The position numbers are program-made. Positions 12,001-27,000 of a stretch of 64,000 nucleotides of DNA are shown here, piece after piece; position 1 is the stretch's first letter; each line of letters opens with the position of its first letter. This DNA comes from Nitrospirota bacterium (GTDB taxonomy: Bacteria > Nitrospirota > Nitrospiria > 2-01-FULL-66-17), in contig JBMOMC010000011.1 of NCBI GenBank assembly GCA_049325335.1, positions 52,926 through 116,925 on the forward strand, in the 5' to 3' direction.

Positions 12001-15000
12001 ACTTCACAAAATATGTGATCCTTGGCGCGTGTAACCCACAGCTCGCATACAAGTCCCTCGTGTCCGAGACCGAGATCGGTCTGTTGCTTCCGTGCAACCT
12101 GATTGTTTACGAGGGTAAGGACGGCCGGACCGTAGTGGCTGCGCAGGACCCGGATGCGGCGTTGGGAATCGTGGGCAACCCCGCGCTGGTTCCGGTTGCC
12201 AACGAGGCGCGCGAGCGGCTCACACGGGTGATCAAGAGTCTGATGTGATGTTCCGTAGGGGCGCACGGCCGTGCGCCCCTACACAACATGGACCTCACCC
12301 TTGTACTGGCTGCCGTAATGCCTTGATCGCGGCCAAAATCTCCGATGGCCGCGGGGGGCAGCCGGGAATTCTCACGTCCACCGGGATGTGCCGCTCCACC
12401 GGTCCGGTCACCGCGTAACTGCCCTTGAACGCGCCGCAGTCGATGGCGCAGTCGCCGAGCGCGATCACGAGCTTGGGGTCGGGGGTCGATCGATGCGCGT
12501 CTTTGAGCGCCCGCTCCATGTTGCAGGTCACCGGGCCCGTGACCACCAAGGCGTCTGCGTGGCGGGGCGAGGCCGCGATGTGGATGCCGAAACGCTCCGC
12601 GTCGTAGACCGAATTGACGAGCGCGTTCATCTCCATCTCGCAGGCGTTGCACGACCCGGTGTCCACTTCGCGGATCGTGAGCGACCGGCGGAAGCAGGCC
12701 GCCTTCCGCGAGGCATCGTCGGAAATCACGGGGAGGGGCGCGGTCGGTTCGGGATGCCGTCCCGTCACGACACCGGTTTTTAGACTTTTCTTGATGATTC
12801 GGAACATCGTGTAATTCCCCCCCTATAGATCGGTTCCTGCGTACGATAAATTAAAGCTTTTGTTTATTAATGGAAAATCCGGAATGATGTTGCCCAGCAC
12901 AGCGAACTGGATCGCGGGCCAGTTCACGAACGAGGGGTCGCGGACTTTGCAGCGGTGGATCGCGCCGTGCTCGCCGGCCATGACGTAGTAGAGGATTTCC
13001 CCGCGCCAGCCCTCGACCGCTCCCAGCCCCCATTGTCCGGTCTCGGGTGGTCCAGGGATCGCGGTGCGGACCTCGCTCGCCGGAATACGCTCGCACACCT
13101 GCCGAATGAGTCGGATCGACTCCGTCACCTCGTCGATCCGTACGCGCACCCGCGCGCGGACGTCGCCGTAGTTGAAGACCGGTACGCGAACGCCGAGATC
13201 GGAATATGCGGCGAACGGGCGGTCGCGTCGTACGTCGCGGTCGATGTTGGACGCGCGTCCCACCACGCCCATCACTCCGTGGTCCCAGGCAATTTGTTCG
13301 GACAGGATGCCCGTACTTTCCAGCCGATCAGTGAGCGAGGCGTTGCCAAACACGATGGCGGCCAATTCACCGAAGTCTTTGTCGGTCGCGTCCGCCTCAC
13401 GGCACACCTCGTCGAGTCGGGATTGGTTTAGGTCGATCGCGGTGCCGCCCACCACATTCACGCCGCGCAGGAAGCGACTTCCGGTGAGCCGATCGGCAAG
13501 CTGCATGAGGCGTTCTTTCATCCGACCGGCATGCGCCAGCGCAAGGGCGTAGGCCGCATCATTGCAGATCGCGCCCACGTCTCCGATGTGGTTGTGGAGC
13601 CGCTCCAACTCCAGAAATAACGTACGGAGGTAGCGCGCGCGCGGCGGGACCGTGATCTCCATCAACCGTTCCACGGCCTCGCAGTATGCCAGCGTGTGGC
13701 CGAACGAGGTGTCGCCGGAAACCTTTTCCGCAAGCGACGCACCGTCCACCAGGGGCCGGTTCTCGAAGAGCTTCTCCACGCCGCGGTGCTTCCAGAAGTG
13801 GCGCAGCTCAAGTTGCATAATGGGCTCACCCGCGACCGAAAACCGGAAATGGCCCGGCTCAATGATCCCGGCGTGGATGGGGCCCACCGGGACCTCGAAC
13901 ACGCCTTCGCCCTCAATTCGGCGGAAATGGTATTCCCCCTGCTGACGTCCCATGACGTGATCCCAGGCAAAGTCTTTCTTCAACGGGTGGGTGCCCCTGG
14001 GCCAGTGCTCGTGGCGGACGAGGCGGCGAAGGTCGGGGTGCCCTTCCGGAATCAGACCGAATAGGTCGCGGATCTCGCGCTCGTACCACTTTGCGGCGTG
14101 GATGTGGGGCGTGATCGAGGGGAAGATCCGATCGCCGTCGGAAAGCTCGGTCAGCAGAATAAGCCACGCGCCGCGACCGGCGAGCGAGAACAGGTAGTAG
14201 ATCTGGGTACGGGCCGCCATCGGCCGGAGATCCACGGCCCACTGTAGCGACAGCGTGCCGCGAAACTCCGCCGTGCTGTGGATATAGTGCGCCACCGTCG
14301 GAATGGCCTCTTTGGCCATGCTGACGATAGGGATATCTTGAACGCGACCGACACCCACGATCTGGTGTTTAAAGGTCGTGACGATTTGTTGTGCTGCCAC
14401 GTCCGCGTCATTCACCGGTCACCTCACTTCACTGTAATGATTGCGACCGCCATACCCATCAAGTCCCTGAGAGGCCAGGGAATCGTCACCCCCAACACCA
14501 CGAGTGCGCCGATGCTGAGAGCGAAGGGAAGATGGCTCAGTCCGAGTTTCTCGCCTCGCGGGACCCCTTCGGGGGGATCTCCCGAGACCATGCCCGCCAC
14601 TCGGTACATAAACCCTCCAAACACCACGACCGCGATGACTAGGAAGCCGGTGACGAGCGCGAGGTTGCGGACTTCGTCCGCGATCATGATGGTCAGAAAT
14701 CGACCGAGATGAATGGAGTCGGCGGCATAGACGCGCGTCGCGAGAGCCGCCAGGATCGAGAATTCGCTGACGAACATGGCCAGCGGCGGCATGCCCACCA
14801 GCGCCAGGGCTGCGATCAAGAAGGCGGTGGCGGTCCAGGGTTGAGCCTTGAGCAGCCCACGCACGCCGTCGATATCCCGCGTCCCGAACCGAACGTGGAT
14901 ATTCCCGGCGGCAAAGAACGCGAGGGATTTGGCGACAGCGTGGTTGATCAGGTGGAACAGGGCCCCGAAGGTTCCGACCCCGCCGACTCCGAACCCGATG

Positions 15001-24000: not shown

Positions 24001-27000
24001 GCGCCGACCGGGGCCAAGAAGCGGTCGCGTTTCACCAGATGCTCCTTCGCGTACCGCGCGCCGCCGGCCAATGCAGCGAGGTTCGAGGACACCACGTGGT
24101 GCCCCTTAGTTGCCAGCCGTTTTCGCAACGAGGTTTCGATGTTGGCGAAGGAGAACCCGAACAATTCCGAGAGAACCCCTAATGCCACGACATTTTTCGC
24201 GACCGGCGACCCGGCGGCTTCGGCGAGCGCGCTCATGGGCACGGGATAGGACACGACACCGGGGGGGTACGCTCGGGGCGCCGCGTCGTGTACACGGTCG
24301 TAGAGCACGACATCTCCCGCGGTCAGATCTTCTCGGTGGGCGCGATGGGCTTCGTGATCGAGCACGACCCACACATCGACGCGGTCCCCTTCCGTCAGGA
24401 GGGTTGAGGGCGAGACCCGGAGCTGGTACATCGTGTCCCCACCGCGTACTTCCGCGGAGAAGGTGGCTCCGGATAGGACCTCCAGTCCGGACAATGCGGC
24501 GGCTTCGGTCAGCATCCGGCCGGCGGTCAGGATCCCATCGCCGCCCACACCCACAAATCTGACGATAAGGCTCTCGTCAAGCTGACTTAGTCGGCGCGAC
24601 ATCAGGGGCCACGCGGCGGACGAGAGGAGGTTTTCGGGCATCAGGATACGGTTTCGCGACCAAGCGAGCGGGCCTGAACCAGCGCCTCTCGCGCGGCCAA
24701 GTGATTCGGATCCATCCGGAGGATTTCTTGGAGCACCGTGACGGCCTCGTCGCTGCGGCGGAGGTCCAGCAGGAAGAGCCCACACTTCAATCGAAGGTCG
24801 ATGTCACGAGGCTTGACGGCGAGTTGTCGGCGATACCAACCGATCAGCCACGCCACCTCGTCGGGAGAAATCGTCGCGCTGTCCTTCTTGGCAATCATGA
24901 CCAACTCCATGTTCTGTTCCGGTTCGTCGTCTCGTCGTGTCGTTATTGAGAGGGCCCGCAGTCACTCCGCATGTTCATCCAGCCCGACGGCCAGTTCATG
25001 GTCCCACCGTTCCATGGTGGCTTGGACCTCTTGCCGAGCTTGTGCACGATGCTTGGCTCGTGCAGCCAATTCGGCCTTTCCCGCGTCCGTGAGCGCCCAC
25101 GGAACAACTTTCCCACTGTTACGCCGCGCGACAATGGCTTTCCGCAGACGGGCGAGCTTGTCGAGGTCGACCCATCCGAGACTGGCGATGGCATCCTCGT
25201 GGGTATCGTTGGCGCACAGCGCGATCGTGTAACAGTTCGTCCCCGCGCGGATCATCTTCATCATCACGTTTACAAAGTGACAATGAGCGTCCATGAACAG
25301 GCCCACTTCGATCTTGTTGTGCCAGATCGTCAGGTTGGGATGACAGGGATTGATCACCACTTCAGGGTCGATCTTGGGATAGATCGGCCGGTAATCGGGC
25401 ATGGGGATGATGTTGATTCCCGGGATTTCGGCGATGAGCTCGAGAGCCGCTGCCGCACGTACTCGCGTCGCTTCGTTCCACCCCCACAGCAGCAACGGAC
25501 CGGGGAAGAACGTGGGGTTGCGTCTCGTGAGCAACTGTTCCGCGATCTGCGGGATCAATTCCTCATCCGATACCACGTCGCCTTCCAACCACCCTTGGCC
25601 CGGGACCGGGAATCGGGTCGCCAAGGCCGCGGCCGCTGCCGGAAGCAGCTCGCCTGGTCCGGGTTGAATGGGGCCTCTCCGTCTTCCTCGGGCAGACTTA
25701 ACGGGCATCGACAACTCCTTTGCTGTGGAGACGTGCTGGTAAAAGCATCGCGCTCGCAGGTCACATCGCGCCCAAACTTGCATCGACCATGCCAGATAGA
25801 TGAATCCGGTGAATCGAGCGAGGCGACGAGTTTCATGGGGTCCGACGACAAGCGCCCATGCGGAGGTCGTCGCAAGAAGATGCAAACTCTGCGGTACAAG
25901 AAAAAACTGCACCGGGTTCATCGCCGGACACTGGATCTTCCGGACGTGTTATAATGCAGCACTTCCACGTTGAATTGATGTTTCGTCCCAGTCCGCAACA
26001 GCCGCTACTTGGGAATTTCCCTGCGCGGCTCATCATCCCGGTTCTCGTCATCCTTGCGGCGGTTGTCGCCATCGTGGCCTTCCTCGGCCTCGAACACGAG
26101 CGGCGAATCTTCCAAGACGTCACCAACCAGGCGGCGGGCGTTGAGTCGGCCCGCACTCGCCTCATCCAAACGACGATCGTCCTGTTTCTCTTCGCGGGCT
26201 TGGGCATCTCGGCGCTTCTGACCTATCAAAGTGATCAATCGACCAAACGGACGCTGGAACGGGTCAAAGGGCTGGCTCGGAATATCCTCCACAGCATTCC
26301 AAGCGGTGTGTTGACGGTAGATCAGTCGGGACGCGTGACGGCCATCAATCCAATGGCTGAGCGAATCTTGGGTGTCACCGCGGAATCGACACTCGGTTTG
26401 GACCTTGACCAGCGGTTCGGCGTCGACGACCCCGTGTATCAGTGCATGCGCCAAGCCTTGGCTGATGCCGAGTTCGTTCGGAATTTCGATATTCGGTATC
26501 CGCCGCAGGACGTCCGCTGGATTCGGCTCACGACGTCCCCACTCACGGATCACGAACATGGGAGAGCCGGCGTGGTGATCCTGCTCCAGGACGTCACCGA
26601 CCTCTTGGTGTTGGAAGACCAACTCCGACGCGGCGAGAAACTCTCGGCGCTCCATACGCTCTCGGCAGGCGTGGCTCACGAGATCCGCAACCCGTTGAGT
26701 GCGATCGATCTCAATCTGCATCTCTTACAGGAAGAGATCGGCGGCGAACCCATGAATACCGGGGCGGTCCAAGGCTACTCGGACATCCTCAATGCCGAGG
26801 TCAGACGGATCAGAGGCATTTTGGATAACTTTCTGCGCTTTGCGCGGCCCACGTCGCTGGTGTTGAGCGACGTCAGGCTGGATGGGATTGCGCGACATAT
26901 CGGTGAGCTCGTCCGGTACGAAGCTCAAGAGCACGGCGTTGAAATTCTCATCGATTTCCCCGACGATCTCCCCGTTGTGTCGGGCGACGAGACTCAATTG

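Follow-up and report, generated by a model that had tools for sequence, protein, structure and literature searches.

The analysed window, a stretch of 64,000 nucleotides from a Nitrospirota bacterium, contains an island in which seven genes of a hydrogenase-like Ehr complex follow two CO_dh-family (delta) genes, a KorAB-like pair and a gene for a small TPR protein. The association of Ehr with OFOR-derived genes of the reverse TCA cycle (rTCA) is real and class-wide, while the KorAB pair of the island, judging by its residues, is probably not a working OFOR. Tentatively, we read the operon as an inducible system supporting carboxylation, in which Ehr might handle CO2, bicarbonate or protons. 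Two questions converge at this locus. One is the role of Ehr, given as unknown in PMC12342949 and PMC10284858; the other is the role of the fifth subunit (PorD/ForD) of oxygen-tolerant POR and OGOR, for which PMC13768988 states neither a known role nor a structure.

The twelve genes are all encoded on the minus strand, from position 25708 down to 12295, and are separated by −4 to 51 bp, with the exception of 170 bp before hyfB. The initial annotation had described the same gene set on one strand, and every gene was recovered; the gap before the Ehr genes, given there as 249 bp, shortens to 170 bp with the start codon used here, and the gene labelled Rv0085-like encodes HyfE (17443..18111; NCBIfam NF008556, E 7e-31).

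HyfG/EhrL (12823..14415, 530 aa) is a large subunit of the fused NuoC–NuoD type. It has five cysteines and, as noted before, no CxxC motif, and the alignment to HycE (7Z0S) indicated that both NiFe motifs are replaced; the two NiFe-binding CxxC motifs of a group 4 [NiFe] hydrogenase are thus absent. PMC6349859 and PMC12342949 define Ehr by a group-4-like large subunit without NiFe ligands. Mrp-antiporter-like subunits, a NuoH-like subunit and a NuoB-like small subunit are found in the same cluster, and HyfG shares 63–73% identity with most large subunits of Ehr in the class. Its best solved relative is 7Z0S chain E, and those of HyfI are MbhJ (6CFW chain J) and HycG. Respiratory complex I can be distinguished by the NuoD quinone-site His/Tyr, the NuoB tandem Cys and the NuoI subunit, none of which was found in the locus; in the alignment, HyfG has no equivalents of Nqo4 His38 and Tyr87, which we take to act at the quinone site.

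The small subunit HyfI/EhrS (12295..12807, 170 aa, Pfam PF01058) has a short N-terminal arm and four cysteines of the N2-type [4Fe-4S] cluster (53, 56, 120 and 150), all of which are kept in 20 of 20 aligned copies of the class. According to its sequence, Ehr carries this single Fe–S cluster. HyfI has no fused 2[4Fe-4S] domain, and a ferredoxin motif was not detected in any Ehr locus of this class; two ferredoxin motifs are present in several Ehr loci outside the class. The membrane part consists of HyfC (NuoH-like, 18108..19064, PF00146), HyfE and three antiporter-like subunits. HyfB (19109..21157; NF005086, above cut-off) has all four central charged residues. HyfF copy 2 (14424..15953) retains the Glu of TM5, the Lys of TM7 and the Glu of TM12, with the Lys of TM8 replaced, the helix labels being our assumption; copy 1 (15950..17446) has the same pattern.

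The HyfB/C/E/F/G/I set and the large subunit without NiFe ligands are shared with the Ehr complexes of Geobacter (GSU0739–0745) and Nitrospirales (PMC12342949, PMC10284858, PMC6349859), whereas the second HyfF, the upstream delta/KorAB module and the sigma-54 pair distinguish the locus from those complexes. The partner proposed for Ehr elsewhere is formate dehydrogenase (PMC6349859). The nearest solved relatives of HyfG and HyfI come from group 4 [NiFe] hydrogenases such as E. coli Hyc/Hyf and Pyrococcus MBH, which have a similar CxxC-type small subunit; unlike them, the locus encodes a HyfG lacking all four NiFe cysteines, and there are no ferredoxin-like subunits in the operon.

Delta-1 (24962..25708) and delta-2 (21328..21975) belong to the CO_dh family (PF02552) and are related to the fifth subunits of the five-subunit POR and OGOR of Hydrogenobacter, Aquifex and Nitrospira. 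Delta-1 is of the ForD type (54% to the main copy of the genome on contig C7), and delta-2 is of the PorD type (63% to the main copy on contig C2); this assignment is inferred from the sizes and beta-subunit motifs. Unlike PorD and ForD, they are additional paralogs outside the por/for operons and form clades of their own. The five-subunit operons, in which alpha, beta, gamma and ferredoxin-like subunits have genes of their own, are not at the locus and lie on C2 and C7. A quick tree, from which the delta-2 rows of L144 and L150 and one short row were left out, shows that, in each module, either main OFOR is matched by one related delta. However, not every delta pair beside Ehr consists of dedicated paralogs: those of L113, a locus scored as module-negative, group with the main copies. 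The invariant residues of delta-2 are His132, His151-Cys152-His153, Cys168 and Cys174. A solved sequence relative of the deltas was not found; their fold is Rossmann-like and matches CODH/ACS epsilon and the middle domains of ThDP enzymes (Z about 10–11.5), matches which do not indicate a function.

KorA (gamma-alpha subunit, 22866..24641, 591 aa) and KorB (beta subunit, 22015..22857) resemble the two-subunit OFORs of Magnetococcus (OGOR, 6N2N) and Sulfolobus (StOFOR, 5B46/5B48) in the domain order, the YPITP motif and substrate-binding Arg of KorA, and the GDG/Asn ThDP–Mg motif and four [4Fe-4S] cysteines of KorB. They differ from them in the flanking delta genes, in Leu57 of KorB, which replaces the Arg of OGOR, and in Gly272 of KorA (codon 23828–23826), located where other OFORs carry the ThDP-activating Glu. 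The position aligns with Glu294a of StOFOR, which is bonded to N1' of ThDP and is named as important for ThDP activation in PMC5020499. This Glu is missing from the full-length KorA proteins linked to Ehr (6 of 6), where Gly, Pro or Ala takes its place, and is kept by the unlinked ones (15 of 15). Some linked copies show drift in further motifs. Another 41 genomes encode KorA as a remnant of 480 aa that lacks the YPITP, EDE and RxGPS motifs, and korB is missing from the 20-odd mapped loci with this remnant. We considered that the linked OFOR of the large families might be a second five-subunit For cluster; it proved to be the single motif-less remnant. In L116 and L207, only KorA domain II (138 aa) is left between two deltas, and this deletion series points to domain II as a possible delta-binding region. 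The genes are under purifying selection (omega 0.12–0.25, with about 0.16 for korA, in one genome pair). Because of the loss of the Glu in all linked copies and the motif-less remnants in the 41 other genomes, KorAB is probably not a functional OFOR, and the ferredoxin-consuming carboxylase that the initial annotation saw in it is not supported; the absence of the catalytic Glu had been overlooked there. This matters for annotation, in which a korAB-like pair of this kind would be taken for one more OFOR, although turnover is improbable. Neither the linkage of Ehr with deltas nor a Glu-less KorA was found described in the literature searched, a set without subscription papers, the original Ehr and 2M papers among them.

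Across the class (401 genomes), the upstream module was detected in 47, and 41 of these 47 are Ehr-positive; the linkage is better conserved than supposed before from a count of at least one or two of six genomes. Ehr is present in 87% of the module genomes and in 33% of the remaining ones, the genomes being kin and not independent. The order and adjacency of the island are kept in six families; its constant elements are the sigma-54 two-component pair and the two CO_dh proteins, and the TPR protein (24641..24910) is a recurrent component. Loci with two HyfF genes contain the module in 19 of 25 cases, compared with 2 of 22 one-HyfF loci (19/6/2/20, n = 47 loci); in independent pairs, the ratio is 5.2 to 0.3, with a median p of 0.06. 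The two parts are, however, separable. Among the 157 Ehr genomes, module KorA occurs in 41 and is lacking in 116; six of the 47 module genomes have no Ehr match, and the module maps apart from Ehr in L207 and L210. Each of the seven plasmid records examined has Ehr as a six-gene operon standing alone. Of 153 loci that do not bear the label of this class, a single one has a delta or OFOR match. As a general function for Ehr complexes, the ferredoxin supply claimed initially fails on these counts.

Genes for SulP, carbonic-anhydrase-like or DAB proteins are enriched near Ehr: 19 of the 219 loci have such a gene at a distance of up to 2.5 kb, the carbonic-anhydrase-like ones being called mostly by a motif without Pfam support. 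When the query loci were left out, 12 near matches were counted versus 1 beyond 5 kb (16.1 versus 1.9 per Mb). The loci L045, L113 and L202 have DAB genes next to Ehr or the module. L113 encodes dabB-dabA-PII, the main deltas and Ehr all in the same direction; in L202, the module is followed by a hyfB remnant and dabAB. The motif in question, CxD..R/HxxC, presumably marks carbonic anhydrases. That a CsoSCA-like protein tracks Ehr in the class is not supported: it was found in 26 of the 401 genomes and beside Ehr in one of the 26. In this genome, no match to beta-carbonic anhydrase (PF00484) or SulP (PF00916) was found, and the only DabA match is on contig C44. The operon resembles DAB inorganic-carbon pumps in combining an antiporter-like subunit with a soluble partner and differs from them in that no DabA-like carbonic anhydrase subunit was identified in it.

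Divergently to the operon, a PAS sensor histidine kinase (25858..27348, plus strand), conserved beside the island throughout the class, and a sigma-54-dependent response regulator (27345..28703, plus strand), more constant than any other neighbour, be it of Ehr or of the delta module, are encoded. A candidate −24/−12 site (25779..25794, minus strand) lies about 70 bp before delta-1. In 42 related loci, such sites are on the operon strand in 20 and on the opposite strand in 6; the consensus is the one we assume for sigma-54. The single match in the window is not above chance. Scans for sigma-70 promoters and terminators gave chance level only. In N. moscoviensis, whose Ehr is without the module, hyfB and hyfG are expressed at 0.24 and 0.18 of the median during autotrophic growth, compared with 8.3 times for forD and 0.9–1.4 times for nuoM of the 2M complex I. 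One RNA run (5% of words) was set aside; its contigs come from relatives and are uninformative on level or strand.

In the carboxylation-support reading, which is possible but somewhat short of probable, the kinase/regulator pair would turn on one sigma-54 transcript, most likely upon inorganic-carbon shortage or a pH/redox shift; near-silence of Ehr in standard autotrophic cultures of N. moscoviensis is as expected for an inducible system. The operon would supply alternative ForD- and PorD-type fifth subunits to the main OGOR and POR. The disabled KorAB might hold, store or sense the deltas, with KorA domain II as the likeliest contact, whereas Ehr may be a machine coupled to the proton motive force, with CO2/bicarbonate or proton handling a likelier task than electron delivery. 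In favour of this reading count the Glu lost only from linked KorA, the further shrinkage of KorA while the genes stay under purifying selection, the deltas related to both main OFORs, and the carbon-supply genes near Ehr, L113 and L202 included. Against this reading stand the invariant N2 cysteines, needless for a non-redox pump, the 200 of 219 Ehr loci, this window among them, with no carbon-supply neighbour detected within 2.5 kb (likewise 0 of 7 plasmid loci), the DAB of this genome lying elsewhere, the CsoSCA-like protein beside Ehr in a single genome, the mostly motif-based anhydrase calls, and glyoxylate carboligase, which works without the Glu (a title cited within PMC5020499). A bolder version, which we regard as improbable, takes PorD and ForD as docking or CO2-delivery adaptors for the oxygen-tolerant carboxylases of the rTCA; their Ehr-linked paralogs on the dead OFOR scaffold would tether POR and OGOR to a potential-driven Ehr that feeds CO2/bicarbonate or low-potential electrons. 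If true, this would be an inducible membrane-bound carbon-fixation metabolon, explaining both Ehr and the fifth subunit.

The initial annotation connected Ehr to the OFOR as a ferredoxin supplier. Its identification of Ehr is supported. So is a class-wide association with OFOR-derived rTCA genes, and the second HyfF, too, tends to be retained with the module. KorAB as carboxylase is not supported, and neither is Ehr as routine source, given the missing quinone residues and 2[4Fe-4S] domain, the 244 of 401 genomes in which Ehr was not found and the low expression in N. moscoviensis. What is left of it, and unlikely in our estimate, is reverse electron transport under stress: a two-HyfF Ehr would use inward proton flow to drive electrons through N2 to ferredoxin or the epsilon subunit of POR/OGOR, with a dock or relay formed by the deltas and by the dead KorAB, in which the beta subunit still has a [4Fe-4S] site. 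The invariant N2 ligands, the KorB cluster cysteines (6 of 6 linked copies), the high share of Ehr among the related module genomes and the second HyfF agree with this; the latter, which co-varies with the module (p about 0.06), is reminiscent of the additional NuoM in 2M complex I (PMC6606698). That complex, for which reverse electron transport to ferredoxin is proposed, contains the cluster subunits NuoG and NuoI and is expressed near the median, whereas Ehr has one cluster and about 0.2 of the median, and the 2M complex I is itself present in the genome. Moreover, no donor site is visible with the NiFe and quinone residues gone, no 2[4Fe-4S] subunit is encoded, korB is missing from the mapped remnant loci, module and Ehr are separable both ways, and the expression values also speak against it, though they concern an Ehr without the module. 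At 180 mV and 3–4 protons per two electrons, electrons could be raised by at most 270–360 mV, short of the step from quinol to low-potential ferredoxin.

The same separability, with the stand-alone plasmid operons, would agree with mere co-regulation, in which the delta/KorA module and Ehr serve different processes under one sigma-54 regulator. We consider this doubtful, since order and adjacency persist across six families and, in most independent pairs, loss of the module goes together with loss of the second HyfF. Least probable is an active KorAB working as a non-canonical ThDP enzyme, comparable to glyoxylate carboligase, that oxidises a small 2-oxoacid while Ehr, in the forward direction, conserves energy from the reduced cluster. 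The retained KorA and KorB motifs of the window copy and the purifying selection fit it, but the Glu is exchanged for three different residues, other motifs drift, 41 genomes retain the locus with a KorA incapable of catalysis, and HyfG has no electron acceptor site. The island offers specific starting points: the regulator pair with its putative promoter site for tracing the inducing condition, two dedicated delta paralogs and the natural KorA deletion series.

As to the host, there is no firm ground for calling it an aerobe: the genome gave no match to a heme-copper oxidase and one partial bd-type match only. The order to which it belongs comprises seven genomes of one family, and neither of the two large families of the class falls within it; membership of the genome in Nitrospirales is therefore improbable. 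Elsewhere in the genome, the ATP-citrate-lyase-like genes, the two five-subunit OFORs and the complex I of 2M type reported earlier were all found, together with a canonical complex I cluster, all named from ORF pattern and translation.

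The twelve tightly packed genes of the operon, confirmed by reading the window, lie on the minus strand where the initial annotation placed them: the genes of the NiFe-less, group-4-hydrogenase-like Ehr complex (HyfB/C/E/F/F/G/I) occupy positions 12295–21157, and the upstream module of delta-1, TPR, KorA, KorB and delta-2 genes, in which the deltas are of the CO_dh family, occupies 21328–25708. Upstream, in divergent orientation, are genes for a PAS kinase and for a sigma-54 regulator, and a −24/−12-like site is located about 70 bp ahead of the operon's first gene. Across 42 loci, 20 have a sigma-54-like site on the operon strand and 6 have one on the other strand, and in the loci mapped the kinase/regulator pair goes along with both the module and Ehr. 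Downstream of the operon (6838–11726), an ECF sigma factor, a probable anti-sigma factor, an outer-membrane-like protein and a repeat lipoprotein are encoded, with a DUF302 gene in between. Two earlier statements about the host are doubtful: its order comprises seven genomes in one family, so it is probably not a member of the Nitrospirales, and the term "aerobe" is unproven, since heme-copper oxidase was not found in the genome and the bd type gave one partial match. The nitrifiers of the class are, by our inference, its large families f3 and f15.

The linked 2-oxoacid:ferredoxin oxidoreductase (OFOR) is probably catalytically dead, judging by its residues. Gly272 of the window KorA aligns with Glu in 6N2N, 1YD7, 8YS5, 5B46 and 5B48, and by count in the 5B48 alignment it corresponds to Glu294a, described in PMC5020499 as bonded to ThDP N1' in StOFOR and important for ThDP activation. 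The six Ehr-linked KorA have Gly, Pro, Gly, Pro, Pro and Ala at this site, while Glu is kept in 15/15 unlinked KorA of the class. Similarly, the KorB site of the OGOR Arg is Leu or Met in 6/6 linked copies and Arg in 15/15 unlinked ones, although KorB retains the four Cys along with GDG and Asn. A 480-aa KorA form lacks YPITP, EDE and RxGPS, and no korB is found beside it in any locus mapped; at L116 and L207, domain II is the sole part of KorA left, between the deltas. The dN/dS values for the single pair of the window and L005 (KorA 0.16, KorB 0.25, both deltas and HyfB 0.12) indicate that these genes are not pseudogenes.

Window-type KorA was found in 3/7 genomes of the order and Ehr in 5/7; in the class, Ehr is present in 157/401 genomes and KorA with more than 50% identity in 6/401, each of the six copies (window, L002, L005, L108, L109 and L119) being a few genes upstream of hyfB. 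Full-length matches to the 480-aa relative, which shares its C-terminal signature with this KorA, occur in 41 genomes of the class, not counting partial matches in G058, G071 and G192. Nineteen of them share a strand with hyfG and are no more than 15 kb from it; another 16 are unplaced or on a different contig, and the remaining six belong to genomes without an Ehr match. Ehr is present in 41/47 module genomes versus 116/354 others, related genomes not being independent, and only 41/157 Ehr genomes of the class have a module KorA. The module and Ehr are separable: other genes follow the module at L201, L204, L207, L210 and L214, and Ehr remnants are seen at L202 and L216. Of the 153 Ehr loci that bear no label of this class, a single one, L239, has a delta/OFOR match; this contig is unlabelled and shows the same gene arrangement. 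Each of the 7 plasmid records inspected, out of 66 matches, carries a stand-alone six-gene Ehr operon. In G016 (L106:12647–13188), short korA and delta fragments accompany an intact Ehr, the module apparently decaying. In the island of the large families, two further proteins are conserved: one of about 85 aa without a Pfam family just ahead of the KorA remnant (L144:4541–4810), and one of 320 aa, encoded ahead of hyfB (L144:6963–7916), that begins like a signal peptide and contains a carboxypeptidase-regulatory-like domain. Ehr itself is already known, its function unexplained; the class-wide delta/pseudo-OFOR module is apparently new, no description of it having been found in the portions consulted of the literature (including PMC10284858, PMC12542776, PMC12903955, PMC10052474, PMC8115632, PMC8691401 and bioRxiv 10.64898/2026.09.02.748891).

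Four CO_dh genes are present in the genome, two of which go with the main five-subunit OFORs (the C7 operon and the C2 copy). About 27 kb separate the main PorD-type delta (contig C2:318847–319494) from its alpha-beta-gamma-epsilon genes; it is located three genes ahead of a citrate-lyase-like pair. A quick tree of 63 rows places the Ehr-linked delta-2 copies on one side of a supported branch, beside the C2 type, and the delta-1 copies in two groups inside the C7 type. From the sizes in Aquifex and N. moscoviensis and beta-subunit motifs, we infer that delta-1 is like ForD and delta-2 like PorD, the fifth subunits of the main OGOR and POR. The predicted delta fold (pLDDT 82) matches CODH/ACS epsilon and the middle domains of ThDP enzymes; three His and three Cys, invariant in 30/30 aligned deltas, possibly form a metal site. 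The role and position of the fifth subunit are stated as unknown in PMC13768988. In G036 (L208), the main delta pair is apart from the alpha genes; fifth subunits can be encoded away from their own enzymes, and at L113 beside a carbon pump.

As initially annotated, HyfG contains no CxxC motif (five Cys in all). In alignment with HycE (7Z0S), other residues replace both of the NiFe motifs; nor does HyfG keep the equivalents of Nqo4 His38 and Tyr87, which have a role in quinone binding. TM5 Glu, TM7 Lys and TM12 Glu are kept in all three antiporter-like subunits aligned with the genome's own NuoL/M/N, and TM8 Lys in HyfB only. By the definition in PMC6349859 and PMC12342949, the complex is an Ehr.

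Tentatively, we read the locus as an inducible carboxylation-support operon, which would supply alternative ForD- and PorD-type subunits, with KorAB acting as a non-catalytic scaffold and Ehr acting on CO2/bicarbonate or protons; any physical contact among the delta, KorAB and Ehr products is putative. In favor of a carbon-supply role, 19/219 Ehr loci have SulP, CA-like or DAB genes no farther than 2.5 kb away, twice inside the operon, and with query-source loci omitted, 12 matches are near versus 1 beyond 5 kb (16.1 vs. 1.9 per Mb). At L113:1879–9560 (G019), the order is dabB-dabA-PII, main PorD/ForD-type deltas, then directly Ehr genes; an LCIB-type CA at L160 and DAB behind the module at L202 are the other direct cases in the class. 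Against this role, 200/219 Ehr loci have no such neighbours, and in a class-wide search one CA type adjoins Ehr in only 1/26 genomes carrying it; in addition, most of the CA-like genes are putative, identified by a sequence motif. The separate DAB cluster of the genome (contig C44:89408–98090) encodes two long DabB copies (873–876 aa), DabA and PII. Mere co-regulation of the module and Ehr is rather unlikely. That KorAB is a non-canonical but active enzyme appears very improbable beside its substitutions; nevertheless, a title in the reference list of PMC5020499 gives a cautionary precedent, glyoxylate carboligase being active without this Glu.

It had been proposed that Ehr, wired to the linked KorAB, runs in reverse to supply low-potential ferredoxin for the reverse TCA cycle. 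Reverse electron transport, via adaptors, is in our opinion unlikely. In its favor, the four N2-type Cys of HyfI are invariant in 20/20 aligned copies, and a second HyfF tracks the module: of 47 loci, those truncated upstream omitted, 19 have both and 20 have neither, while 6 have the second HyfF alone and 2 the module alone; independent pairs are 5.2 to 0.3, median p 0.06. However, Ehr has no donor site and no ferredoxin-like subunit; ferredoxin motifs are absent from the small subunits of the class, and several loci outside it carry two. The calculated uphill limit is 270–360 mV (3–4 H+ per 2 electrons, 180 mV), and 244/401 genomes of the class have no Ehr match. The published rival candidate for ferredoxin reduction, 2M complex I, is indeed encoded in the genome, as the initial annotation noted (candidate role: PMC6606698). 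According to the supplement of that paper, N. moscoviensis on nitrite and CO2 expresses hyfB at 0.24× and hyfG at 0.18× the median, with forD at 8.3×, porD at 4.0× and the 2M nuoM genes at 0.9× and 1.4×. These low levels also argue against reverse electron transport; however, Ehr of N. moscoviensis lies behind a sigma-54 regulator with no module in between, so its expression tests Ehr in general and not the module-bearing variant.

Among other Ehr loci, a BNR/YCF48-like beta-propeller gene is located between hyfG and hyfI (L123:1347–2420 and L124:16619–17650), and PTS EIIA-domain proteins, some with HTH or SulP fusion, recur at the head of or within the operons (L049, L074, L075, L076, L083, L035, L042 and L025). 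A hyfI-first type (L041, L043–L048, L051–L060, L062, L065, L067 and L068), found many times in Patescibacteria, has a small subunit without the usual N2-site CxxC, the first Cys being replaced in the copies inspected; CA-like or ATP synthase genes adjoin several of these loci.
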